From contig JACRCE010000063.1 in NCBI GenBank assembly GCA_016213015.1, forward strand, positions 39 to 64,038: a stretch of 64,000 nt of DNA, in the 5' to 3' direction. Under the pieces are notes generated by a model, which saw only the letters and a program-made list of their open reading frames with translations, did no database searches and had not been told where the DNA came from. This document shows, one piece after another, positions 3,951 through 24,434 of this stretch (position 1 is its first letter; each line of letters starts with the position of its first letter). The stretch is from Deltaproteobacteria bacterium. Lineage in GTDB: Bacteria > Desulfobacterota > GWC2-55-46. The position numbers and the translations under genes are program-made.

Positions 3951-6900
3951 ATGCTCCAAAAAGATACAATCGAGTCTAACGACGGCCCTTGTTCCATGAA
4001 GGCGCTCCTGCCGCGCTTGATCGCGCTTGGCGCGTTTGACCGCAACGAGGCCGTTACGGTTTCCGTGCTTTTCGGCTCGTCAAAGGCGCTGCTCATAGCT
4101 TCGGTTTTTCGAGGAGGGGCAAAGCCGCACCTTGTCATTCTCAAGGACGAGGAAGCGGCCTCTGAGATGGCCGTTGACCTCCGGTTTTTCCTCGGCAAGG
4201 ACAGCGTACTTTTTTATCCGTCCACCGAGACATTACCGTTTGAACTCGACCCGCCGCATGAGGACATAAGCGCCGAGAGGGTCGCCGCGCTCCACAGCTT
4301 TACGCTTGGATCGTCGGTCGTCGTGGTTGCGGCTGTCTCTACGCTTATGCAACGCCTGCCGCCTAAGGCTGACTTTACGGCCAAGGCGCTGAACCTTCGC
4401 GTTGGGGGGGAGTATCCGAGGGAGGCGCTCATCGAGACCCTGAGCAACATGGGCTACGCGAGGATGAGCATGGTTGAGGAGCGCGCCGAGATGAGCGCGC
4501 GCGGAGGCATCCTTGATATATTTCCGCCCGCGAAAGATCGTCCGCTGAGGCTGGAGTTTTTCGGCGACGAGCTCGAATCGATCAGGAGTTTCGACATCGC
4601 CACGCAAAGGTCGCTCACGGAACTCAAGGAGGCGCTTATCCTGGCGGCACGGGAGGCCTCGCCCGACAAAGAGATACTTTCAACGGCCAGAGATAGGCTT
4701 ATCGACAGGGCCGATGCGCTCGGGTTGGACAGGCTTTCATGGGAGGCGCTCTCGGACAGGCTCAAGGCGGGCGCGTCAGGTCTTGGCCTGTCGCCGCTCT
4801 TGCCGTTGTTGTACGACAGGCTCGACACTATTTTCGACTATCTTGGGTCAAACGCCGTCATTACGGTAGTTGACCCCGAGGCTGTTAAAACCGCGGCTCA
4901 GGGTTTTGCCAAGGATGTGTCCGCTATAGCCGCAAAGGCCGTTGAAAAGAGGCGTTTTTTCGCGGAGCCGGCCGAGTTGTATATCTCTCCCGACGCCTTT
5001 TTGAAGGCGATAAACGTCTTTTCGCTTATCAACGTGGAGCCTGTGATGGAGGCTGGTTTCGTCATCGGCGCAAGCGCGAGATTAAATATCGCCATGCGGC
5101 ATGACCTGAATGTTTCAATCGGTGGAAAGGGAAGTACGGTTCTTGAGACCCCGCTTGCCCCTCTTGCTTCGATGCTCAAAGACAGGCTTGAGGCCGGATG
5201 CCGCGTCTGGATCAGCGCCCACAACAAGGGACAGGCCGAGCGCACAAAGGAGTTGCTTGAAGGCTATGGTCTGGCCGTCAGCCAAGGGTTTTCCTTTGAC
5301 GTGGACCCGCTCAACGCGCCTCTTGGCGCGCTTTGCGTGGTCATCGGCTCGATAACGTCCGGGTTTTATCTTGAAATGGACCGTTTCTGGCTCATATCCG
5401 AGGAGGAGGTTTTCGGGGAGCGCGTAAAGGCAAGGACACCTCCTGCAAGAAAGCTTGACGCCTTTTTAAGACAGTTGCAGGAGTTGTCCGACGGCGACCT
5501 TGTGGTGCACAAAGACCACGGCATCGGCCTTTGCAGGGGTCTTAAAAGGCTGGGCATTGACGACGTTGAGAATGATTTTCTCCTGCTTGAGTACAGGGAT
5601 GGCGACAAGCTCTACCTGCCGGTATGGAGGCTTGATCTTATAAGCAGGTACAAGGGTTCGGGAGGACAAACCCCTGAGCTTGACAAGCTTGGGGCAAAGA
5701 ATTGGGAAAAGAGAAAAAAGAAGGTCGGGGCAGCCGTTGAAAGATTCGCGGGGGAACTCTTGAATCTCTACGCTCAAAGACAGAGCGCCGTGGGCTTCAG
5801 CTTCTCGCCTCCCGACAGAATATTCGAGGAGTTCGAGGCGGGCTTCGACTTCGAAGAAACGCCGGATCAGAAAAACGCCATTGCCGAGACGCTTGCGGAT
5901 ATGAGAAGCGACAGGCCTATGGACAGGCTTATCTGCGGCGACGTGGGCTACGGCAAGACCGAGGTTGCGATGCGGGCCGCCTTCAAGGCCGCCCTTGACA
6001 ACAAGCAGACCGCGATCCTCGTGCCCACGACGATATTGGCCGATCAGCACTTCAACACATTTTCGAGAAGGTGCGCGCCGTTCCCGGTAAAGATCGGCGT
6101 CCTGTCCCGCTTCAAGACGGCAAAGGAGCAAAGGGAGACGATCGCTTCAATAGCGCTGGGCGAGGTCGACATCGTCATCGGCACGCACAGGCTTTTACAA
6201 AAAGACGTAACGTTCAAGGACTTGGGCCTTATAGTAATCGACGAGGAGCATCGTTTCGGCGTGGCGCATAAGGAACGCTTGAAACACCTGAGAAAAAACG
6301 TAGACTGCCTGACGCTTACGGCCACGCCCATACCGAGAACCCTGAACTTGTCCATTGCGAGCATAAGGGAGTTGTCCATCATAAGCACCCCGCCGGTAGA
6401 CAGGCTTGCGATAAAGACCAGCGTGGCGAGGTTCGATCCCGAAATAATAGCCGAGGCGCTGGAGCGGGAGTTCAAGCGCGGGGGACAGGTCTTCTTCGTT
6501 CATAACAGGGTCGAGTCCATCGGCGCGATGGAGAGGTTTCTAAGGGAGGTTGCGCCAAAGGCGCGCATAGCCGTGGCGCACGGGCAGATGAAGGAGCACG
6601 AGCTTGAGCGAAAGATGCTCGGCTTCGTCAACAAGGACTACGACTTGCTGTTGTGCACCACCATAATAGAGTCCGGCCTCGACATACCGTCGGCCAACAC
6701 CATCATAATAAACCGCGCCGACAGGTTCGGTCTGGCCGAGTTGTACCAGTTGAGGGGAAGGGTCGGCAGAAGCAGCCACAGGGCATACGCCTATCTTTTA
6801 TGCCCTGATTCGGGATCCATGAGCGCTGACGCCGTAAAGCGTCTGGAGGTGATACGCGAGCTTGCCGAACCGGGTTCGGGCTTCTCTCTCGCCTCTTATG

Positions 6901-7472
6901 ACCTTGAGATACGCGGGGCGGGCGAGCTGCTTGGACAGGCGCAGGCCGGCCAGTTCGCGGACGTGGGCTTTGACATGTACGCGACCCTCCTTGAAGACGC
7001 GGTAAGGGAGTTGAGGGGCGAAGCGTTGCCCGACAGCAGCGAGCCGGACGTAAACCTGAGGGTGTCGCAGTATATACCCGAGGAGTACATCCCCGACGCA
7101 AGGGAGAGGCTCGGCCTTTACCAGAGGCTCTCAAGTATTGCGACGGACGACGATATATATCTCCTGAACGATGAGTTGAGCGACAGGTACGGGGACCCTC
7201 CAGCGCTCGTGGGCAACCTCCTTCGCACCGCTTCGTTAAGGATCGTCCTGAAGCGTCTCAAGGCAACGGAGTTCAAGCAGATAGGAGATAGACTGTATAT
7301 AACCTTTGCCAAAGGCGTTGGCCCGGAGATAGGCGATAGGGCGTTAAACCTCGTCAAGAAAGAACCAAAGCGATACAGGATAGCGCCGGATTCAAGGCTG
7401 ATAATCTCCATAGACAAGGACGCGGACCCGCTTGAGACGGCGAAATTTGTGTTGAAAGAGTTGGAGGGCTGA
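3951..7472 (+). CDS. mfd: Transcription-repair coupling factor Mfd (superfamily 2 helicase)
   Basis: 1173 aa. The UvrB-homology N-terminus, the RNAP-interaction domain, helicase motifs (GDVGYGKTEVA, DEEHRFGV, TATPIPRTL, QLRGRVGR) and the TRCF C-terminal domain are present. The true start may be the internal Met at about 3996. Confidence 0.95.
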   Translation: MLQKDTIESNDGPCSMKALLPRLIALGAFDRNEAVTVSVLFGSSKALLIASVFRGGAKPHLVILKDEEAASEMAVDLRFFLGKDSVLFYPSTETLPFELDPPHEDISAERVAALHSFTLGSSVVVVAAVSTLMQRLPPKADFTAKALNLRVGGEYPREALIETLSNMGYARMSMVEERAEMSARGGILDIFPPAKDRPLRLEFFGDELESIRSFDIATQRSLTELKEALILAAREASPDKEILSTARDRLIDRADALGLDRLSWEALSDRLKAGASGLGLSPLLPLLYDRLDTIFDYLGSNAVITVVDPEAVKTAAQGFAKDVSAIAAKAVEKRRFFAEPAELYISPDAFLKAINVFSLINVEPVMEAGFVIGASARLNIAMRHDLNVSIGGKGSTVLETPLAPLASMLKDRLEAGCRVWISAHNKGQAERTKELLEGYGLAVSQGFSFDVDPLNAPLGALCVVIGSITSGFYLEMDRFWLISEEEVFGERVKARTPPARKLDAFLRQLQELSDGDLVVHKDHGIGLCRGLKRLGIDDVENDFLLLEYRDGDKLYLPVWRLDLISRYKGSGGQTPELDKLGAKNWEKRKKKVGAAVERFAGELLNLYAQRQSAVGFSFSPPDRIFEEFEAGFDFEETPDQKNAIAETLADMRSDRPMDRLICGDVGYGKTEVAMRAAFKAALDNKQTAILVPTTILADQHFNTFSRRCAPFPVKIGVLSRFKTAKEQRETIASIALGEVDIVIGTHRLLQKDVTFKDLGLIVIDEEHRFGVAHKERLKHLRKNVDCLTLTATPIPRTLNLSIASIRELSIISTPPVDRLAIKTSVARFDPEIIAEALEREFKRGGQVFFVHNRVESIGAMERFLREVAPKARIAVAHGQMKEHELERKMLGFVNKDYDLLLCTTIIESGLDIPSANTIIINRADRFGLAELYQLRGRVGRSSHRAYAYLLCPDSGSMSADAVKRLEVIRELAEPGSGFSLASYDLEIRGAGELLGQAQAGQFADVGFDMYATLLEDAVRELRGEALPDSSEPDVNLRVSQYIPEEYIPDARERLGLYQRLSSIATDDDIYLLNDELSDRYGDPPALVGNLLRTASLRIVLKRLKATEFKQIGDRLYITFAKGVGPEIGDRALNLVKKEPKRYRIAPDSRLIISIDKDADPLETAKFVLKELEG

Positions 7473-7484
7473 TGCTATCCTAAT

Positions 7485-7698
7485 GTTGCCTCTAAAAATT
7501 GCTATTTTTTCCGATTTCGGCGTCAGGGCGAAAATAAAAATGCTCACATATTATCATATATGCTCCGCTTTTTATTTCCGCTTCCATCGCCCAGCACCAC
7601 TTTGGATTACGAAAGGATGTTGTTTCCCAAGTCTCTTCGTGCAACAAAGTGGTGCTGAGGCTTGAACTCGAAAAAACTATCTAATTTTTTGAGGCAAC
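7485..7698. mobile_element. MITE-like non-autonomous element, copy 1 (about 214 bp) with terminal inverted repeats GTTGCCTCTAAAAATTGCTATTTTT ... CTAATTTTTTGAGGCAAC and an internal hairpin (CGCCCAGCACCACTT / AAGTGGTGCTG)
   Basis: Shares its termini and internal blocks (GCTCACATATTA..TATATGCT.CGCTTTTTATTT, CCCAGCACCACTT) with the 21094-21392 copy. Intergenic between mfd and the surA-like gene, and no ORF with coding signal. Confidence 0.6.
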
Positions 7699-7709
7699 AT
7701 CGAGTGGCT

Positions 7710-8645
7710 ATGAACCTCATCGCCAAAACCTTCATGCCGTTCATGCTTGCGTTTGCGCTCGTATGCGGGCAATCGTGCTCGCGTGAGCCGGACAGGTCAA
7801 GAGCCGTGCTGGCCAAGGTTGGGGGAAGGGTGATAACGCTGAAGGAGTATGAGGACGCCTTTTCAAGGCTCTTGCCTCCGGGAGCAACGGACGCCAAAGA
7901 GGAGTTGCATCTCCTGAAGAAGGAACTCCTGAATCAGCTTATAGAGGAGTCCTTGATGCTGGACGAGGCAAGCCGTATGGGCGTGTTCGTGAACGATGAA
8001 GAGCTTGCACGGGAGATAGAGGGCATAGAAAAAGAGTACGGCTCTCCTTCCTTCAAGGACGCTATAGCGGCGCGTTACGGCGATCTGGCGGTATGGAAGG
8101 AAGAGATCAGGAGAAAGCTCGTTCTGAGAAAGGTCATGGACAAGGTCAACGCGTCGTCCAAGGGGCGCGCCCCTAATGAGGAAGCGATAAAAAGATATTA
8201 TGACGAGCATATAAAGGACTATGACCTGCCTGAGCAGGCGCGGGCAAGGATGATAGTGGTGAGCGCCGAGGATGAGGCGCTCAAGATACGAAAGCGTCTG
8301 ACGAGGGAGAACTTCGCAGCCACGGCAAAGGAGGTCTCTTTAAGCCCCGAGGCCAAGCGCGGAGGAGACTTGGGTTTTTTTGGACGCTCCGATATGCCGA
8401 GGGAGTTCGAGGACGCCGTATTCAAGCTCAAGGTCGGCGAGATAAGCAAGGTCGTAAAGACGAGCTACGGATACCATCTCTTTGTGCTTGAGGAAAGACG
8501 CAAAGAGAGGAGGCTCAGGTTTGACGAGGTAAGTGAGAAGATACGCGCAGGGCTCGTGCTTGAGGCCGCTGACGCCCAGTGGAGCAAGTGGTTGGAAGGT
8601 CTGAAGGCCAACGCGAATATAGAGATAAACGAGGAGATGCTGTGA
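7710..8645 (+). CDS. Peptidyl-prolyl cis-trans isomerase, parvulin type (SurA/PrsA/PpiD-like), exported
   Basis: The parvulin signature GGDLGFF...F..AVF.LK.GEIS.VV.T..GYHL is present. N-terminal hydrophobic signal with Cys (possible lipoprotein). Start assigned to ATG 7710 just outside the repeat element. Confidence 0.8.
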   Translation: MNLIAKTFMPFMLAFALVCGQSCSREPDRSRAVLAKVGGRVITLKEYEDAFSRLLPPGATDAKEELHLLKKELLNQLIEESLMLDEASRMGVFVNDEELAREIEGIEKEYGSPSFKDAIAARYGDLAVWKEEIRRKLVLRKVMDKVNASSKGRAPNEEAIKRYYDEHIKDYDLPEQARARMIVVSAEDEALKIRKRLTRENFAATAKEVSLSPEAKRGGDLGFFGRSDMPREFEDAVFKLKVGEISKVVKTSYGYHLFVLEERRKERRLRFDEVSEKIRAGLVLEAADAQWSKWLEGLKANANIEINEEML

Positions 8646-9616
8646 ATCGAAGACATGAAAATACCGTGAAGACGAGATGGTCTCTAAAGCGCATCGTTTC
8701 CGTTACTATCTTGCTTTCCGTGTTTTTACAGACGACTTGCCGCGCCGAGGTGATTGACCGCGTGATAGCGGTGGTAAACGACGCCATCATCACGCTCTCC
8801 GAGCTTAACGCGGCGGCAGCCGCGGCGCTTGACAAACTTCCGGCAAGCGAAAAAAAGGACGCTGAAAAGACGGCGGGGCTGCGCGTTGCCATGCTTGACT
8901 CGCTCGTTGAGCAAAAGCTCGTGAAACAGGCCGCCGACAAGGCCGGCATCGAGATAAGCGAGCGCGAGATAGACAACGCGGTGGACGACGTTATGAAAAG
9001 AAATAACCTTACAAAGGACACTCTGCTTCTGGCCCTTGCCAACAGCGGCCTGACGCACAGGGAGTACAGGGAGCAGCTCAAGGAGCAGATACGGCAGGTC
9101 AAGTTCATAAACAAGGAGTTCAGGTCCAAGATATCTCCAAGACCCGAGGATATAGAGGATTACTACCGCCAGAATCAGGACGAGTTCAAGGCCGGGCAAT
9201 CCTACAGGGTCGAGATCATACTTATCCCCGACTCGGTTGACGATAAAACAACGGCCGCGACGATCAAGGCCGTTCAGGACGGCATTGCGGACGGCGAGGC
9301 GTTTGAAGCGCTTAGCCGGCGATATTCCGGCGGGGCAGGTGCGGGAGAAGAGCTTGTAATCGCCTCGGGAGAGGTCGGCAAGGCCATGATTGATGCGCTC
9401 TCAAGGCTCGAAATCGGCAAACCGAGCAAGGCCGTGCGCCTTGCCCAAGGGGTTTATTTTTTCAAGCTCAAGGAGCGGATACAAGGCCGGATAAGGCCGA
9501 TCGAGGAGGCAAGGGAGGAGATACACGAAAGGCTCTTCAAAAAGGCGATGGATGAGCGTTTCACCTTCTGGCTCATAGAGGCAAAAAAGAAGGCGCATAT
9601 AGAGGTAAGGCTTTGA
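8642..9616 (+). CDS. SurA-like periplasmic chaperone (SurA N-terminal domain plus a degenerate parvulin domain)
   Basis: Signal peptide then IDRVIAVVND.IIT.SEL, typical of the SurA N-domain. GTG start at 8642 with a GAGGAG RBS, overlapping the upstream stop. It is in tandem with the other PPIase and precedes pdxA, as in the classic surA-pdxA arrangement. Confidence 0.7.
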   Translation: MNRRHENTVKTRWSLKRIVSVTILLSVFLQTTCRAEVIDRVIAVVNDAIITLSELNAAAAAALDKLPASEKKDAEKTAGLRVAMLDSLVEQKLVKQAADKAGIEISEREIDNAVDDVMKRNNLTKDTLLLALANSGLTHREYREQLKEQIRQVKFINKEFRSKISPRPEDIEDYYRQNQDEFKAGQSYRVEIILIPDSVDDKTTAATIKAVQDGIADGEAFEALSRRYSGGAGAGEELVIASGEVGKAMIDALSRLEIGKPSKAVRLAQGVYFFKLKERIQGRIRPIEEAREEIHERLFKKAMDERFTFWLIEAKKKAHIEVRL

Positions 9617-17505: not shown

Positions 17506-18663
17506 ATGAAAAAGAAACGCCTCATATTTGTCGTTGCGGGGGGGATAGCCGCAGTCATCGTTGCAAGCGCGGTTTTTTTCTCCGTTCGCAGTAACGGCTT
17601 CGATGCGCCTGCATATAAGATCATAAAGGCCGCTAAGGGCGAGCTTAGGATTGAAGTCCTTGCGACCGGGGTCGTCGTGCCTGAGACCGAGGTGGTCGTC
17701 AAGAGCAAGGCCGGCGGCGAGATAACGCGCTTTCCCTTCCACGAGGGAGACCTGCTTGAAAAGGGCGTAGTCGTGGCGAGGCTCGACCCCAAGACCGAGC
17801 TTGCAAGGAAGAATCAGGCCGAGGCGAATCTTTTGGTAACTCAGGCGCGCCTCAACAAGGCGCGCATTTCCTATAAAGACGCGGACATGCGCCTCAAGCG
17901 CCAGAATAAGCTTTTTGAGGACGGCATAATCTCCAGACAAGACCTTGACGACGCCGAGATCGCCTTTGAAAAGGCCGGAAGCGACGTAAAGATCGCGGAG
18001 GCCGAGCTGAGCCAATCGCAAGAGGCGCTCAACGAGGAACGGGAGCGTCTTGCGGACACCGAGATAAAGGCGCCGTTTACCGGAACCATGCTGAGGAAGT
18101 TCGTTGACGCGGGGCAGGTCATATCCTCGTCCATGTCCTCCTTTTCGGACGGGACTCAGCTTTTCAGCATGGCCAACCTTGAAAAGATATACGTTGACGC
18201 GATGGTTGACGAGGTTGACATAGGCAGGGTCATCGCCGGTCAGGAGGCAAGCGCGACGATTGAATCGCTTCCCGGCGTAATATTCAGCGGCACGGTGGAG
18301 CGCATATCTCCAAAGGGCGAGGTCCAGCGCACGGTAACGGTCTTCAAGGTCTTTGTGCGCGTAAACGACAAGAACAAGGCCATGCTCAGGCCCGGCATGA
18401 CCGCCGACGTGAGGATACTTGCCGGACTCAGCAAGGATTCGCTCCTCATACCCAACGAGGCGTTGAAGCTCAAGAACGGCAAGAGCGGCATCTATGTCCT
18501 TGCGGGAGATGAGCCCGCGTGGCGCGAGATAAAGACCGGAAAGACCGACGGCCTTCAGACCGAGGTGACAAGCGGGCTCAAGGAAGGCGAGATCGTAGTA
18601 ACCTCCGGCATGATTAATGACGCGGCACATAAGGCACAGAGGAGGCGGTTCGTGATATTTTAG
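17506..18663 (+). CDS. macA: Efflux transporter periplasmic adaptor subunit (membrane fusion protein, MacA/HlyD family)
   Basis: N-terminal TM anchor, biotinyl-lipoyl-like and coiled-coil hairpin regions, and beta-barrel domains. Confidence 0.85.
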   Translation: MKKKRLIFVVAGGIAAVIVASAVFFSVRSNGFDAPAYKIIKAAKGELRIEVLATGVVVPETEVVVKSKAGGEITRFPFHEGDLLEKGVVVARLDPKTELARKNQAEANLLVTQARLNKARISYKDADMRLKRQNKLFEDGIISRQDLDDAEIAFEKAGSDVKIAEAELSQSQEALNEERERLADTEIKAPFTGTMLRKFVDAGQVISSSMSSFSDGTQLFSMANLEKIYVDAMVDEVDIGRVIAGQEASATIESLPGVIFSGTVERISPKGEVQRTVTVFKVFVRVNDKNKAMLRPGMTADVRILAGLSKDSLLIPNEALKLKNGKSGIYVLAGDEPAWREIKTGKTDGLQTEVTSGLKEGEIVVTSGMINDAAHKAQRRRFVIF

Positions 18664-18715
18664 CGGGCTACCCGAAAGTCTTGCGTTTTTATAGATATGC
18701 AAATATAATCACTTT

Positions 18716-19453
18716 ATGAAAAAATATTCGAAGGCGCCCATTGAAGAGGCCGTTTTTGACATCAAAATAGACCCTGCCCTATCTATTGAAGGCAAGGATT
18801 TGGAGTCCTTGTACACAAAGGTTTCAGACCGCTATCCTATAAAGGAAATTCTAAGAACATCCGAGGTAATTAGTGAAGTAAAGGATGGAGAATTAGCAAA
18901 TGTTCAGGCAAGAAGCAAGGGAGTGGTGGGTTTTCGTTTTTGGGATAAAGAACGTAAGCAGGTATGCAATTTCGGATTGGACGGTTTCAATTTCAGCCGT
19001 TTGAGGCCATATAGCGGATGGGAAGACTGTTTTCCAGAGGCGATGAGATTATGGGGTGTTTATAAAGCGGACTTCAACCTCCATCATATCAAGCGGGTCG
19101 CCGTTCGATTCATCAATATTATCAAAATTACGGAAACTCGATTTGAACTTGCCGATTATTTTAATAACCCGCCAGCCCCCCCGACAGGGCTTCCGCAGGA
19201 TTTGACGGAATTTTTTTCACGTTTAAGAGTACGATATGAGGACGGTTATTTTGCAATTATTACCCTTGCCATACAAATGCCCGCTGAGCCAAATACCGCC
19301 TCGATACTGTTGGACATAGACGTATGCACGGAGACGCCTTTTGAAGCGGTTGATGAAGGCCGGCTTGAAAAAATCTTTGAACGCCTCCGGCATATCAAAA
19401 ATGATGTCTTTGATAAGAGCATCACACAAAAAACCAAGGAACTCATAAAATGA
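18716..19453 (+). CDS. Hypothetical protein, first gene of a low-GC three-gene cassette (the N-terminus KAPIEEAVFDIKID is reminiscent of the uncharacterised TIGR04255-type family)
   Basis: 245 aa; GC is visibly lower (about 42-45%) than the flanking genes; its stop overlaps the next start (ATGA). Confidence 0.55.
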   Translation: MKKYSKAPIEEAVFDIKIDPALSIEGKDLESLYTKVSDRYPIKEILRTSEVISEVKDGELANVQARSKGVVGFRFWDKERKQVCNFGLDGFNFSRLRPYSGWEDCFPEAMRLWGVYKADFNLHHIKRVAVRFINIIKITETRFELADYFNNPPAPPTGLPQDLTEFFSRLRVRYEDGYFAIITLAIQMPAEPNTASILLDIDVCTETPFEAVDEGRLEKIFERLRHIKNDVFDKSITQKTKELIK

Positions 19454-19947
19454 TAGACATGGCGCTTGTCCAAGTTGCTTTTAACCGTGACAATGCAAGA
19501 CCTGTAGTTGTTTGCGAAGCGGCAAAAGGAACCAACGACGAGCTTTTCCGTAGCGCGTTCCTTGACACGCCTTCAATACTCTTTAGCTGGCGTTTAAGGC
19601 TTAAAAACAGGATATACACCTTAGCTAAGGACTGTTCTTCCGAAGGGTGGAATGGCGAGGGCGCTTTTCCTATGTCAAGTGAGGCGATTAACGCGGCCGA
19701 GCGTTTTATAGACCTTTTGCCGGAAGGCGTTATGGAACCGTCCATCACCGTTGAAAACACAGGCGATATGGCATTCGATTGGGACATCGGAGCGGATATG
19801 ACCTTTACCGTTATCGTATCAAGAGACCGCGCCGTTTATGCCGGTATATTCGGCGATTCAAGACGACGCGGCACGGAAAGGATTCACAGCGAACTCCCCG
19901 GCACAATCAAAGACGTGCTGTTGGCGTACTTTAGAAAGAAAACCTGA
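19450..19947 (+). CDS. Hypothetical protein, second gene of the cassette
   Basis: 165 aa, translationally coupled on both sides; no recognisable motif. Confidence 0.5.
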   Translation: MIDMALVQVAFNRDNARPVVVCEAAKGTNDELFRSAFLDTPSILFSWRLRLKNRIYTLAKDCSSEGWNGEGAFPMSSEAINAAERFIDLLPEGVMEPSITVENTGDMAFDWDIGADMTFTVIVSRDRAVYAGIFGDSRRRGTERIHSELPGTIKDVLLAYFRKKT

Positions 19948-20369
19948 TGCCCGAACCCGCTCTTTCCTTAAAGGAGCCGGTTGAAGACGATGAGGCCATT
20001 TCCAGGTTTTTAACCGATGAAGATTCATTTTATCGGAAGACGGAAAGGGTTCATCACTCGGCCTTTAAGCTCCCGCGAGGGCACAACGCCATCTCCGTAT
20101 ATCGCACAAAAGATATGGTTGACCGCGCGATATGGGATATGGCGCGAAGATTTGTTACGGAACTCAGACCTGACCGCAAAGAGGTCTTGGCAAGGGCGGA
20201 ACTTAAAGCCGGCGACTATAAAGGGCTTCATTTAAAGTTTAGCTGGGATGGAAAACCGCATCCGAGGCATGTGAATATCGAAGGGTGGCCTTCAAGCGTA
20301 GAAGACATGCTTGCAGTAAGAAAAGAGCTTGCAAACAAAGCCCGCCTGATCAGCAAATCGGCAAATTAA
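19947..20369 (+). CDS. Hypothetical protein, third gene of the cassette
   Basis: 140 aa, start overlapping the upstream stop (TGATG); basic, with conserved-looking His/Arg patches (ERVHHSAFKLPRGH, PRHVNIEGWP) of unknown meaning. Confidence 0.5.
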   Translation: MPEPALSLKEPVEDDEAISRFLTDEDSFYRKTERVHHSAFKLPRGHNAISVYRTKDMVDRAIWDMARRFVTELRPDRKEVLARAELKAGDYKGLHLKFSWDGKPHPRHVNIEGWPSSVEDMLAVRKELANKARLISKSAN

Positions 20370-20435
20370 TCCATTTGCGCTTTGTCATGCCTTTGCCGTG
20401 TCCATTGTTGCGTCAGAGGAACTTTACGCATCGCC

Positions 20436-21092
20436 ATGATCGAGCTTATTGACATCAAAAAATCATACCGCATGGGGGCATCGTCGGTCGACGCCCTCAA
20501 GGGCATAAGCCTTGTTGTCAAGAAGGGCGAGTATGCGGCCATAATGGGGCCTTCGGGCAGCGGCAAGTCTACCCTAATGAACATCATCGGTTGCCTTGAC
20601 AGGCCCACTCACGGCTCTTACACGCTCTCTGGGGTAAGGGTGGACGCCATGACCGAGGACGAGCTTGCCCGGCTGCGAAACACGCACATCGGCTTCGTTT
20701 TCCAGACCTTCAACCTGCTTTCAAGGCACACGGCGCTTGAGAACGTGGAACTGCCTCTGCTGTACGCGGGAGAGGCCGATACCGAAGGCCGGGCAATGGC
20801 CGCGCTTGAGGCAGTGCGGCTTGGGGCGAGGGCCGGACACAGGCCCAATGAGCTTTCAGGCGGAGAGCGCCAGAGGGTCGCGATCGCCCGGGCGCTTGTT
20901 TCAAACCCGTCTATAATACTAGCGGATGAGCCTACCGGAAACCTCGACAGCGTCAGCGGCGCCGAGATACTCAGGATATTCGACGAACTTCACGCCAACG
21001 GCGCGACCATCGTCCTCGTTACGCACGACGCGGACGTCGCCGGAAGGACCCAAAGGACCATAACCATCCGCGACGGCTTGGCAACGGTTTGA
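20436..21092 (+). CDS. macB: ABC transporter ATP-binding protein (MacB/LolD-type ATPase)
   Basis: Walker [13 protein letters not shown] signature LSGGERQR and Walker [12 protein letters not shown]; start at MIELIDIKK. Confidence 0.9.
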
Positions 21093-21093
21093 G

Positions 21094-21392
21094 GTTGCCT
21101 CTAAAAATTGCTATTTTTCCCGATTTCCTTGTCATGGCAAAAATACACCGGTTGCCCGTCGGCTTGCGCCCAGCACCACTTCGTGCCGAAAAAGTGTATC
21201 GTTTGACAAGTCTCGTATTGCGAAGTGGCGCTGGGCGCAATAAGACGGGCTTCAAAGAGAGCGTGAGCTTCCTTACCGGGGCTAACCGCGCTTTTGCGGT
21301 TGGCCCAATGCTCACATATTAGTGTATATGCTACGCTTTTTATTTTTGCCCTTCCTCGAACTCGGAACAACTTTCTAATTTTTAGAAGCAAC
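21094..21392. mobile_element. MITE-like non-autonomous element, copy 2 (about 299 bp), with the same terminal inverted repeats as 7485-7698
   Basis: GTTGCCTCTAAAAATTGCTATTTTTCCCGATTTC at the left end and CTAATTTTTAGAAGCAAC at the right; the internal CGCCCAGCACCACTT ... AAGTGGCGCTGGGCG hairpin. Inserted between the ATPase and permease genes of the macB system. Confidence 0.6.
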
Positions 21393-21414
21393 CTTGAAAT
21401 GATAGGGATTAGTT

Positions 21415-22623
21415 ATGCTGCTCTTGAAAACCATGCAGGTCGCCTTCAGGGCCATACTGGCCAACAAGATGCGAACCGGGCTGACCATGCTCGGCATCGT
21501 CATCGGCGTGGCCGCGATAATCGCCATGATCTCCATCGGCGAGGGCGCGAAGGCTCAGGTCGTTGAGTCCATAACGAGGTTCGGCACCAATTCGCTGAGG
21601 GTGCGCCCGGGCGCGGCGCGCCTCGGACACATACAGACGGGCGCGGTAGAGACCCTTACCATAGAGGACGCGGACGTCATAAGGGCGTCGGTCGCCGACG
21701 TGGCCTATGCAAGCCCGGCTATATCCGGCACCTATCAGGTAAAGTACGCCAACAAGAACTCCACCACGCTCATTACCGGCACTACGCCCGAGTACATGAC
21801 CATCAACAATTTTCCGGTCGACACCGGACGTCTCTTCGACGCAACGGACTTAAAACTCGTAAAGCGCGTGGCGATGCTCGGCACGACCGTCAAAAAAGAG
21901 CTGTTTGGCGACGGCCCGGCGATCGGCTCCGAGATCAAGGTCTCTGGCATGAGTTTTCTCGTCATCGGCGTCATGCAGACAAAGGGGCAGACCTCGTGGT
22001 ACGACCCGGACGATCAGGTCTTCATACCCATAACCACGTCGCAAAAGCGGCTTTCAAATCAGGATCATATTAACGACGTCTACATACAAGTCGCAACGGT
22101 TGACGCGATACCCAAGGTAAAGGCCGAGGTTGAAAAACTCCTTCGCGCAAGGCACAGGATAGCCGCGGACGCGGAGTCGGACTTCAGCATAAGGGACTTC
22201 AGCGAGTTCGTGCGGACGCTCAAGCAGACGGTGAGGACGTTTTCCATCTTATTGTCCGGCATCGCCGCGGTGTCGCTCCTCGTGGGCGGCATAGGCGTGA
22301 TGAACATAATGCTCGTGTCCGTTACCGAGCGCACGAGGGAGATAGGCATCCGCATGGCCGTGGGCGCGCGCAGAGCCGACATACTGAGGCAGTTCCTGAT
22401 AGAGGCGGTTTCGATAACGATTACCGGCGGCGCTATCGGCGTAGGTCTGGGGATGCTGATAAGCAAATTCATCTCATGGTTCGGCGAATGGCAGACCATA
22501 ATAACGCCGTATTCGGTCTTGCTCGGCTTTTTTTTCGCGGTTGCGATAGGCATCATCTTCGGCATCTATCCGGCCAGAAAGGCTTCTCTTTTGGATCCTA
22601 TAGAGGCGCTGAGATATGAGTAA
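21415..22623 (+). CDS. ABC transporter permease (MacB/FtsX family, with a large periplasmic domain)
   Basis: 402 aa with an N-terminal TM, a periplasmic domain of about 200 aa, and three C-terminal TM helices with the FtsX-like motif. Confidence 0.85.
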   Translation: MLLLKTMQVAFRAILANKMRTGLTMLGIVIGVAAIIAMISIGEGAKAQVVESITRFGTNSLRVRPGAARLGHIQTGAVETLTIEDADVIRASVADVAYASPAISGTYQVKYANKNSTTLITGTTPEYMTINNFPVDTGRLFDATDLKLVKRVAMLGTTVKKELFGDGPAIGSEIKVSGMSFLVIGVMQTKGQTSWYDPDDQVFIPITTSQKRLSNQDHINDVYIQVATVDAIPKVKAEVEKLLRARHRIAADAESDFSIRDFSEFVRTLKQTVRTFSILLSGIAAVSLLVGGIGVMNIMLVSVTERTREIGIRMAVGARRADILRQFLIEAVSITITGGAIGVGLGMLISKFISWFGEWQTIITPYSVLLGFFFAVAIGIIFGIYPARKASLLDPIEALRYE

Positions 22624-22760
22624 AACCGCCTTTGTATATTCCGACAAATTCGGCTCGTTCTACTACGGCCTTGACCATCCGATGCGGGTCAAAGACGTTT
22701 CTGCCGTTTGTGCGGGCGTGGCCTTTCTCAGGACAGAGGTTTTGCCGCTTGCACAAAGGC
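22617..22760 (+). pseudogene. Possible 5' remnant (48 codons) of a histone-deacetylase/AcuC-family gene, truncated by the downstream restriction-modification insertion
   Basis: The ATG overlaps the macB permease stop (ATGAGTAA); the peptide MSKTAFVYSDKFGSFYYGLDHPMRV resembles an HDAC-family N-terminus. The ORF terminates after 48 codons and is followed by the promoter of the methyltransferase. Confidence 0.3.
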
Positions 22761-22840
22761 GCTGAAACGGAAAGATCAGGCTTGACTGCTTGCGGCGATA
22801 TTAATAATATGAAGGCGGTTCTCAGCCACGGAAGGATGCC

Positions 22841-23704
22841 ATGAAGATACCGGTTGAACTATTGCTCGGCGACTGCAAAGAGGCGCTCAAAAACCTCTCC
22901 GATGATTCAATAGACCTGATATTCACCTCTCCGCCCTACGCCGACAGCCGCAAAAACAGCTACGGCGGAATTCATCCTGATAGGTACGTTTCATGGTTCC
23001 TGCCGGCATCGAAGGAGTTGTTAAGGGTCTTAAAACCGGCGGGGACGTTTGTCTTAAACATAAAGGAAAAGGTGGTTGAGTCCGAACGCCACACCTACGT
23101 CTGCGAACTGATACTTGAGATGAAAAAACAGGGATGGCTTTGGACCGAAGAGTTCATCTGGCACAAGAAAAATTGCTACCCCGGCAAATGGCCCAACAGA
23201 TTTCGTGATTCATGGGAGAGGCTTTTGCAGTTTAACAAGCAAAAGAGGTTCAACATGTATCAGGAGGCCGTCATGGTTCCGACTGGAGACTGGGCAAAGG
23301 ACAGGTTAAGGAATCTGAGCGAAACCGACAGGACCCGCGATAATGCTAAAAACGGCAGCGGATTCGGAAAAAACGTTTCCAATTGGCTCAACAGGGACAG
23401 GGCATATCCAACGAATGTCCTGTATCTGGCGACCGAGTGCGGCAATAAAAACCATAGCGCGGCATTTCCCAAGGCGCTTCCCGAATGGTTTATAAAACTT
23501 TTCACAAAGCAGGGAGATTCGGTGCTCGACCCCTTCATGGGTTCGGGAACAACCGTGCTCACGGCATGCGGCATGAACAGGAGGGCAATCGGGATTGAGA
23601 TTCACCCGCAATACTATAAATCCGTTCAAAACATGCTGAGTCTGCAAAAAAAAACCGCGCCGGAAAGAGCCAATGAGAAGATCCAGATCGCTCTCTTTAG
23701 ATGA
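22841..23704 (+). CDS. Site-specific DNA methyltransferase, beta-class (N4-cytosine or N6-adenine), of a type II restriction-modification system
   Basis: Catalytic motif DLIFTSPPY near the N-terminus and AdoMet motif VLDPFMGSGTT near the C-terminus. Confidence 0.85.
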   Translation: MKIPVELLLGDCKEALKNLSDDSIDLIFTSPPYADSRKNSYGGIHPDRYVSWFLPASKELLRVLKPAGTFVLNIKEKVVESERHTYVCELILEMKKQGWLWTEEFIWHKKNCYPGKWPNRFRDSWERLLQFNKQKRFNMYQEAVMVPTGDWAKDRLRNLSETDRTRDNAKNGSGFGKNVSNWLNRDRAYPTNVLYLATECGNKNHSAAFPKALPEWFIKLFTKQGDSVLDPFMGSGTTVLTACGMNRRAIGIEIHPQYYKSVQNMLSLQKKTAPERANEKIQIALFR

Positions 23705-24434
23705 CATAACGGCCTATGTTAAAAAGAACGTGGGGGTGTTTCATGAAAACCGCCTGCGGAGTCTTCAAGGTTTGAAGCTGAATAGTGTAATCCCTCGGAA
23801 AAACCCATACCTTTTCAAAGCCAAGCATATCCTGAGCGCGAACGATTTTGTAAAGCTGATACTTGACGCGCATCTGTCATCGCAGGAAGAAACCATATTT
23901 GGAGACTTTCTCGAAGGTCTGTCCATCCATGTTTGCAGTAAGGTTTACGGCGGCAGGAAATCTTCCGCCGAAGGCATTGATTTGGAATTGGAAAAGGGCG
24001 GCAATAGATATATAGTGGCCATAAAATCCGGGCCTAACTGGGGAAACAGCTCTCAAATAAGAAAGATGCGGGAAGATTTCAAACGCGCAAAAAAGATTAT
24101 AAGGACCTCCGCGCCGTCAACGGCCGATGAAAACATCGTGGCCGTAAATGGCTGCTGTTACGGCAGGGACTCATCCCCGGACAAGGGCGACTATTTCAAG
24201 CTCTGCGGTCAGAGATATTGGGAGTTTATCTCCGGACGCTGTGATTTATTTACGACGATAATCGAGCCGCTTGGCGCCAAGGCTAAAGAGAAAAACGAGA
24301 AGTTCGTACGCGCCTACTCAAGGATGATAAACAAGTTTACCGCATCGTTTATACGCGATTTTTGCATAGACGGACGGATAAACTGGGAAGGCATCGTGAA
24401 GTTTAACTCGGCGGTTGAAAGATCGGATATTTAG
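23673..24434 (+). CDS. Putative cognate type II restriction endonuclease (PD-(D/E)XK-like)
   Basis: 253 aa overlapping the methyltransferase gene by 32 bp; a candidate PD...(D/E)xK core GIDLELEK; lower GC than the backbone. Confidence 0.5.
   Translation: MRRSRSLSLDDITAYVKKNVGVFHENRLRSLQGLKLNSVIPRKNPYLFKAKHILSANDFVKLILDAHLSSQEETIFGDFLEGLSIHVCSKVYGGRKSSAEGIDLELEKGGNRYIVAIKSGPNWGNSSQIRKMREDFKRAKKIIRTSAPSTADENIVAVNGCCYGRDSSPDKGDYFKLCGQRYWEFISGRCDLFTTIIEPLGAKAKEKNEKFVRAYSRMINKFTASFIRDFCIDGRINWEGIVKFNSAVERSDI

Follow-up and report, generated by a model that had tools for sequence, protein, structure and literature searches.

Within a 64,000-nucleotide stretch of a deltaproteobacterial contig (JACRCE010000063.1; this whole stretch is called the window below), three small overlapping genes, here named g1, g2 and g3, lie inside a macA-macB efflux operon. 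From their genomic context together with one fold match in the twilight zone, we infer that this cassette is a self-contained, horizontally acquired tripartite toxin–antitoxin (TA) or abortive-infection module, in which g1 would serve as a hub, g2 as a neutraliser and g3 as an NAD-using effector; we put the chance that this reading is right at about even. As a general kind, small modular operons for TA or defence are known, but this particular system is not: the hub is uncharacterised, g2 and g3 fall in no curated family, and we found the triad in no paper. The original prediction, made from the bare sequence, had proposed a horizontally acquired module of the defence or addiction type; it is supported by our analysis, and every element of it that could be tested held.

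The three open reading frames (ORFs), of 245, 165 and 140 amino acids (aa), have exactly the coordinates and overlaps that had been claimed for them: the g1 stop and g2 start codons are joined by ATGA (19450-19453), and the g2 stop and g3 start codons by TGATG (19945-19949). Their placement between macA and the macB ATPase gene is borne out by the Pfam matches of the flanking proteins (Table 1), with 52 nt between the macA stop and the g1 start and 66 nt between the end of g3 and the ATPase gene. The contig's public record annotates g2 as a protein of only 91 aa (P0004, which covers 55% of the ORF at 100% identity). We favour the 165-aa form because homologues of 156-169 aa share a conserved MID start and the ATGA overlap, a comparison that supports it as the correct gene. 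No second copy of the cassette was found within the window. Scans of the cassette returned neither an Rfam match nor a meaningful tandem repeat, which excludes both a structured RNA and an antitoxin of the RNA kind (type III).

Close relatives are few (6 matches for g2, 13 for g3 and 15 for g1 in the indexed search), and they always form the same ordered, overlapping triad. The genes do travel together: order and overlaps are kept in eight of eight close-relative loci and in all four of the distant stand-alone g2 relatives sampled. Their surroundings vary. A second contig of the same species (L004) and a syntenic relative (L005) carry the cassette at the same macA/macB junction. At L001 it lies 215 nt 3′ of a tmRNA gene, and such genes are classic hot spots for islands; the low GC there is confined to the ~2-kb cassette, which ends in a strong hairpin followed by a T-run, as a terminator would. 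At L003 its neighbours are a DUF748 gene on one side and an unrelated gene of 462 aa on the other, another independent locus, L007, has the complete triad in a different deltaproteobacterial metagenome-assembled genome (MAG), and at L020 the triad adjoins a Rep_trans replication gene. A metagenome scan with g3 yielded one partial locus only. On two contigs of the MAG MFD01299.bin.2.48 (L007 2918-6684 and L016 2850-5635) the same two genes for Ser/Asp/Thr-repeat proteins stand ahead of a g1 gene, as either a duplicated larger unit or strain variants.

In agreement with the predicted foreign origin, the cassette has a GC content of 0.465, against 0.544 in the rest of the window, and the difference from the flanks is wider at third codon positions (GC3), where g1, g2 and g3 have values of 0.435, 0.524 and 0.504 and six neighbouring host genes (folD, OEP, macA, macB) range from 0.69 to 0.76 (macA 0.72; macB genes 0.72-0.76). 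The same drop, 8-15 GC points below the surrounding DNA, recurs in four host genomes, and low GC in all four, a conserved promoter of its own and unrelated neighbourhoods all point to acquisition from outside. The genes had also been taken to be functional rather than decayed. This is confirmed by intact triads in several independent contexts and by pairwise ratios of nonsynonymous to synonymous substitution of 0.09-0.28 for all three genes (window, L001, L003 and L007), from which we conclude, on this comparison of sequences, that g1, g2 and g3 are real genes maintained by purifying selection.

A sigma-70-type promoter appears to be borne by the cassette itself. It is conserved as CTTG(C/T)(G/A)TTTTT...TATAAT-N6-7-ATG in five loci (window, L005, L001, L003 and L007), with TATAAT invariant and with sequence further upstream that is unrelated among the five. 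A generic promoter scan did not call it, as its −35 element matches at only three of six positions. Because the g1 ATG (18716) lies 6 nt past the −10 element in the window, we take this to be a private cassette promoter that would give a leaderless or near-leaderless g1 mRNA, and this putative promoter is also the left edge of the mobile unit, ~10 nt past the macA stop. On the other side, the first 16 nt counted from the g3 stop codon (TAATCCATTTGCGCTT) are common to the window and L005. The window scan called no terminator-like site on the plus strand after g3, so transcripts that start at the cassette promoter probably continue into macB.

These features bear on whether the cassette might simply be part of the pump operon, for example as a regulator or as an immunity factor for an exported substrate of MacAB-TolC. 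Such an accessory role would account for the probable co-transcription with macB and for the finding of the cassette at one and the same macA/macB junction in two related lineages, where macA, cassette and macB ATPase gene of L005 are collinear with the window in a single 3.6-kb high-scoring segment pair. We consider it extremely unlikely, however: triads with the same private promoter occur without macAB (the macAB-free triads are at L001, L003, L007, L019-L022 and L026), the GC3 of the cassette is 20-30 points under that of the pump genes, and in L005 the cassette proteins (73-83% identical to those of the window) have diverged further than the flank proteins (88-93.5%; macA 91%). The original prediction had set a mobile module against genes conserved between macA and macB with host-like composition; L005 does share the junction, but the composition is still foreign and the triad is also found elsewhere. 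Because the syntenic relative has the cassette at the same junction, the insertion there is, judging from this synteny, old and vertically inherited in the window lineage and L005. Among the relatives retrieved none had an empty macA-macB site, and the exact MacA protein occurred only on the same-species contig that also carries the cassette. The L005 assembly (6573-9437; coverage ~4.8x) has one apparent frameshift each in macA, g1 and g2. Assembly errors are the more likely explanation than pseudogenisation because the host gene macA is affected too.

The first gene had been described as having an N-terminus reminiscent of the TIGR04255 family. The resemblance is correct and stronger than claimed: g1 matches this NCBIfam model over its full length, scoring 126 bits where the cutoff is 30 (E 2.1e-36; residues 3-245 align to positions 1-252 of the 252-position profile), and the source record likewise names it TIGR04255. 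The family is an uncharacterised one labelled ‘sporadically distributed’. A full-text literature search for TIGR04255, CHP04255 and IPR026349 found no paper, no function, structure or partner genes have been described for it, and the organisation of hub plus partner pair described below was likewise not found in that search. The structural model of g1 is confident (predicted local distance difference test score, pLDDT, 82.8; predicted template modelling score, pTM, 0.77) and shows two similar beta-alpha-beta3-4-alpha halves that together are predicted to form a curved antiparallel sheet backed by long helices. In structure it comes closest to antiparallel-sheet enzymes that bind ATP (McsB, arginine kinase, GCL and SerRS), and SecB is absent from the top 60 matches. 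Across 17 diverse family members Y99, W102, R131, I133, N134, D200, D202 and F232 are invariant and E11 and N229 nearly so. The conserved polar residues, which the model places on three strands and the C-terminal helix, look like a binding or catalytic site. Pfam revealed no recognisable DNA-binding domain in g1, and none of the PADLOC models matched it.

For g2 neither the sequence nor the family profile matched Pfam, NCBIfam, PHROG or the PDB, and the statement that neither g2 nor g3 carries an assignable motif stands, in that Pfam and NCBIfam give no family for either. The g2 family is nevertheless large: an exhaustive HMMER profile search of 1.84 billion representatives (counted as clusters at 50% identity) gave 2,451 clusters at E<=1e-3, and 525 when the threshold was tightened to E<=1e-10; most of the proteins are 150-175 aa long, and no credible Pfam domain was found in 50 sampled relatives. 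Its members share a C-terminal domain with the conserved pattern W-D/N-G-x-G-A-x-P ... G-D-x-x-F-x-W ... Y-A-G-I-F-G. The four distant stand-alone relatives mentioned above (P0040, P0045, P0098 and P0150), one of which is the triad beside the Rep_trans gene, are each preceded by a TIGR04255-type gene (local hidden Markov model E values of 1e-31 to 1e-84) and each followed by a g3-type gene. Two long-form proteins with the g2 domain (256 and 297 aa) precede ORFs with g3-like N-termini; the gene upstream of them is not clearly TIGR04255. Since g2 lies directly upstream of a g3-type gene in every locus examined, the two are by this gene-order comparison an obligate pair, usually led by TIGR04255.

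The g3 protein found no match in Pfam, NCBIfam or PHROG, and none of 17 relatives matched Pfam at E<=10. Its predicted structure is also confident (pLDDT 83.6, pTM 0.75), with elements in the order beta-(alpha)-beta-alpha-beta-alpha-beta-beta-alpha-beta, and Tpt1 and DarT are among the best structural matches of the model. The conserved residues of the family (R20, S50-x-Y52-R53, W63, R83 and the segment P-H-P-R-H108-x-N-I-E112-G-W-P) include a candidate R-S-E-like set: R20 on the first strand, S50-x-Y52-R53 on the second and H108...E112 on the fifth predicted strand (108-112). On the strength of the model we regard an ADP-ribosyltransferase (ART) fold for g3 as probable rather than established, with the balance somewhat in its favour. 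At the sequence and profile level g3 has no similarity to the ART toxins DarT, RES/ParT/MbcT, Tse2, Tne2, HopF/AvrPphF or Tpt1/KptA; the cassette has neither a DUF4433 toxin match nor a macrodomain (DarG) partner as in DarTG, and it includes no ParS/MbcA (Xre/DUF2384) or Tsi/Tni-type partner. A PDB match to 9hnh_A (E 0.003) was discarded, as this is a designed-looking repeat protein that aligned through its repeats; nothing else was found when g1, g2, g3 and their family profiles were compared with PDB sequences.

The evidence that g1 is a hub comes from its more distant relatives. In genomes and on plasmids, TIGR04255 genes whose products are only 23-37% identical again precede two tightly coupled small genes, and these belong to other families. 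At nine loci from Bacteroidota and Ignavibacteria, the TIGR04255 gene is followed by one for a 129-154-aa protein and then by DUF7689 (PF24738), and hhalign indicates that these partner genes are not remote homologues of g2 and g3 (probability 1.3% and 0.15%). On a Vibrio parahaemolyticus plasmid (L024) the pair consists of a protein of 179 aa and one of the Zeta_toxin/AAA_33 type, and plasmids of Crinalium and Thermus pair TIGR04255 with further unrelated types. The record of a P2-like Ralstonia phage, YO139_2 (ON170239.1; L026 371-3442), has a TIGR04255 triad with a g2-family protein (E 8e-7, broad profile) and a 146-aa protein that is marginally g3-like. This record is flagged UNVERIFIED_ORG and the triad lies at its end, so that phage carriage is not established; the ORFs that follow the triad look like PAAR and DUF4123 proteins, the latter presumably a type VI secretion system adaptor, and this end may belong to flanking bacterial DNA and not to a phage. 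Hubs of this kind occur in Deltaproteobacteria, Betaproteobacteria, Bacteroidota, Cyanobacteria, Vibrio and Thermus. The middle protein was acidic in all eight triads examined (isoelectric point, pI, 4.6-5.2) and the third was basic in five of them.

DUF7689 is itself worth describing. It always comes third, after the TIGR04255 gene and a small acidic protein, in L008-L015 and L017 (e.g., L008 6150-6581), its residues C29, H100, D119 and H122 are invariant (motif YNCIAWA...HAARQ...D-V-x-H), and from this pattern a papain/NlpC-like hydrolase is possible. Our full-text literature search found no paper on it.

A constant component with exchangeable partners recalls the toxin–antitoxin–chaperone (TAC) systems, in which the constant part, a SecB-like chaperone, detects structural proteins of phages and by doing so sets free TA pairs that can be interchanged; in CmdTAC the toxin CmdT acts on mRNA as an ADP-ribosyltransferase, and is freed when the constant component senses a phage protein (PMC11618068; bioRxiv 10.1101/2024.02.24.581848). 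Both TAC and our cassette consist of three small co-transcribed genes, one of them constant and the other two an interchangeable pair, but the cassette has no SecB-like chaperone and no sequence relationship to CmdTAC, and we offer TAC as an analogy only, the best functional one for a hub with swapped pairs. The cassette also resembles type II TA modules, since its small genes are neighbours that run in one direction, are translationally coupled and are passed on together; the charge pattern of g2 (pI 5.1) and g3 (pI 9.2) is only a soft indicator of TA.

If the cassette is a TA module, it might be a plain addiction module, acting by post-segregational killing or stabilisation, with a third, regulatory gene, whose product g1 controls expression and has no part in phage defence. 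The model for this would be omega-epsilon-zeta, where a first gene is likewise followed by an acidic antitoxin-like gene and then by a toxin, and L024 indeed ends in Zeta_toxin/AAA_33; in the window, however, g3 is not a zeta toxin and g1 is unrelated to the small ribbon-helix-helix repressor omega. Against this, g1 has no recognisable DNA-binding domain, its length of 245 aa would be large for a TA autoregulator, several sister triads adjoin restriction-modification (R-M), PifA or CRISPR genes on chromosomes, and g2 and g3 resemble candidates that were found by their embedding inside defence systems. We therefore think pure addiction fairly unlikely, while noting that addiction and defence are compatible roles rather than mutually exclusive ones.

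The defence neighbours are as follows. The triad adjoins a Type ISP R-M system at L008, PifA at L010, a Type III restriction endonuclease at L011, a Type I methylase together with PDC-S04 and a specificity subunit at L012, and VapBC, a DNA methylase and cas6 at L025; in the window an EcoO109I-type R-M system lies 2.5 kb downstream of the cassette. Neighbours of this kind are suggestive of a defence link. A second pointer comes from the PADLOC candidate PDC-M32: 23 of the 50 sampled g2 relatives match the PDC-M32A model (best E 1e-7) and five of 17 g3 relatives match PDC-M32B (best 6e-4). The conserved g2 domain aligns to positions ~236-335 of the 375-position PDC-M32A model, which is over twice as long as g2, and PDC-M32 is modelled as a two-protein candidate (A plus B) without TIGR04255. 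The g2-g3 pair thus looks, from these profile matches, which fall well short of family level, like a remote relative of PDC-M32 and not a member.

Several observations weigh against the cassette being a mobile defence module with an ART effector. The association with defence genes (<=5 kb away) is a small count without background statistics, at least six of ~16 TIGR04255 loci. The window proteins themselves match PDC-M32 weakly (g2, E 1.7e-3, over a third of the PDC-M32A model) or not at all (g3), and PDC-M32 in turn belongs to a set of 145 untested candidates, drawn from genes that lie inside BREX, DISARM or type I R-M loci (bioRxiv 10.1101/2024.01.29.577857). As for mobility, no integrase, transposase, flanking direct or inverted repeats or att-like repeats of the tmRNA 3′ end were found, profiles of g1 and g3 matched no ART-type triad on the viral contigs of IMG/VR, and tblastn searches with g2 and g3 against plasmids and with g2 against phages returned nothing. 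As for the fold, Foldseek gave no significant PDB match for the g3 model (best ART E 0.72), g3 matched none of the ART families by sequence or profile (Pfam PTS_2-RNA, DarT, RES and ART; PDB), E112 lies at the end and not the start of its strand, so that R20, S50 and E112 are candidate residues only, and distant relatives do not keep H37, which is part of a local HHSAF motif.

The points on the fold lend themselves to another explanation, a non-toxic enzymatic or regulatory module of stress or nucleotide metabolism in which g1 would be an ATP- or nucleotide-using enzyme (with a guanidino-kinase, ligase or class II aminoacyl-tRNA synthetase-like sheet) working with two accessory proteins, and g3 no toxin at all. 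The ART call is confirmed neither by Foldseek nor by any sequence method, the best structural matches of g1 are ATP-binding antiparallel-sheet enzymes, and its polar set E11, R131, N134, D200-x-D202 and N229 is invariant across relatives only 23-40% identical. Exchange of the third gene among unrelated families, one of them a bona fide member of the zeta-toxin family, is on the other hand what conflict systems typically show and metabolic pathways do not, and the sporadic distribution, foreign GC, hot-spot insertion by a tmRNA gene and defence neighbours argue in the same direction, which leaves us thinking this explanation improbable.

We also considered an interbacterial effector–immunity set, in which g3 would be secreted as a small ART toxin in the manner of Tse2 or Tne2, g2 would confer immunity to it and g1 would help to deliver it, as adaptor or chaperone. 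Effector–immunity pairs usually have the effector first and the immunity gene second, whereas here the order is reversed, with the putative immunity gene ahead of the toxin; neither a trafficking domain nor a signal is present in g3, and no secretion-system genes, Rhs, PAAR or VgrG lie near the cassette in the window, L001, L003, L005, L007 or L020. This makes such a set very unlikely.

Returning to the tripartite TA or abortive-infection module, we envisage that the cassette landed between macA and macB in an ancestor of the lineage and that its own promoter would transcribe the three genes as one translationally coupled unit. The g3 protein would be a minimal ART-fold effector that uses NAD+ to modify a macromolecule, or else consumes NAD+; as its best matches by structure include Tpt1 and DarT, its target could plausibly be a nucleic acid. 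As its cognate acidic partner, g2 would bind g3 and keep it inactive. Because g1 is combined elsewhere with unrelated pairs, among them those with a zeta toxin and the Cys/His protein DUF7689, it is probably generic, either a sensor of a trigger such as phage infection or a controller of the stability or release of the neutraliser, and its role would then resemble that of the SecB-like chaperone that controls TA ‘warheads’ in TAC, with an unrelated fold. It is in this sense that we infer toxicity and NAD+ use for g3, neutralisation by g2, a sensor or regulator role for g1 and an anti-phage function for the whole.

Table 1. Features of the cassette and its flanks (positions in the window).
Feature	Position	Strand	Description
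g1	18716-19453	+	245 aa, pI 6.0; TIGR04255-family protein, constant hub of the triad family
g2	19450-19947	+	165 aa, acidic, pI 5.1; putative cognate neutraliser/adaptor of g3
g3	19947-20369	+	140 aa, basic, pI 9.2; putative effector/toxin, predicted minimal ADP-ribosyltransferase-like fold
Putative sigma-70-type promoter borne by the cassette	18681-18709	+	−35 TTGCGT 18681-18686, 17-nt spacer, −10 TATAAT 18704-18709
Right junction spacer	20370-20435	+	66 nt; ends at the macB ATPase ATG (20436)
macA-type membrane-fusion gene (host flank)	17506-18663	+	Pfam HlyD_D23, HlyD_3 and related models
macB-type ABC ATPase gene (host flank)	20436-21092	+	Pfam ABC_tran, E 2e-32
macB permease gene (host flank)	21415-22623		Pfam MacB_PCD and FtsX

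Two other features of the window lie close to the cassette. Just past the macB permease gene there is a second low-GC insertion (22616-24434), the type II R-M system, in which an N6_N4 DNA methylase gene (22841-23704) overlaps an EcoO109I-family endonuclease gene (23673-24434). In L005 the slot is occupied by an intact Hist_deacetyl gene, of which the window has as remnants the first 24 codons (22616-22687, 96% identical) and the last ~26 codons (22679-22756); because only the two ends are kept, gain of the R-M system appears to have been coupled to deletion of the deacetylase gene. The spacer between the macB ATPase and permease genes (21093-21414) is 322 bp long, and 117 bp and unrelated in L005. 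It contains an inverted repeat with 18-bp arms (21166-21183 and 21221-21238, one mismatch), and a copy of the arm with three mismatches lies at 7587-7604, making three matches seen where ~0.16 would be expected by chance. This repeat may be a small repeat element or a miniature inverted-repeat transposable element.

The pattern of one hub and many partners also allows a broader, decidedly tentative proposal, which on balance we doubt but think worth stating: that TIGR04255 marks a large unrecognised class of modular tripartite immune or TA systems, in which a nucleotide-binding, kinase- or ligase-like hub would sense infection and license two-gene ‘warheads’ (ART-like, DUF7689, zeta and others), mechanistically parallel to TAC and evolutionarily unrelated to it; on this proposal g3 would be the start of a new minimal ART family, which might target nucleic acids. 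If the reading proposed here for the cassette is true, it adds a widespread family of conflict systems, with ~2,450 g2 clusters at 50% identity and no protein of characterised function among them; a constant hub with swappable effector pairs would be a natural experiment on the separation of sensing from killing, as in TAC; and g3 would be among the smallest ART-fold effectors and an entry point to ADP-ribosylation targets. The cassette is small (1.7 kb with its own promoter) and so directly testable by cloning. For annotation, the label ‘TIGR04255 family protein’ would then flag a three-gene module and not an isolated hypothetical gene.

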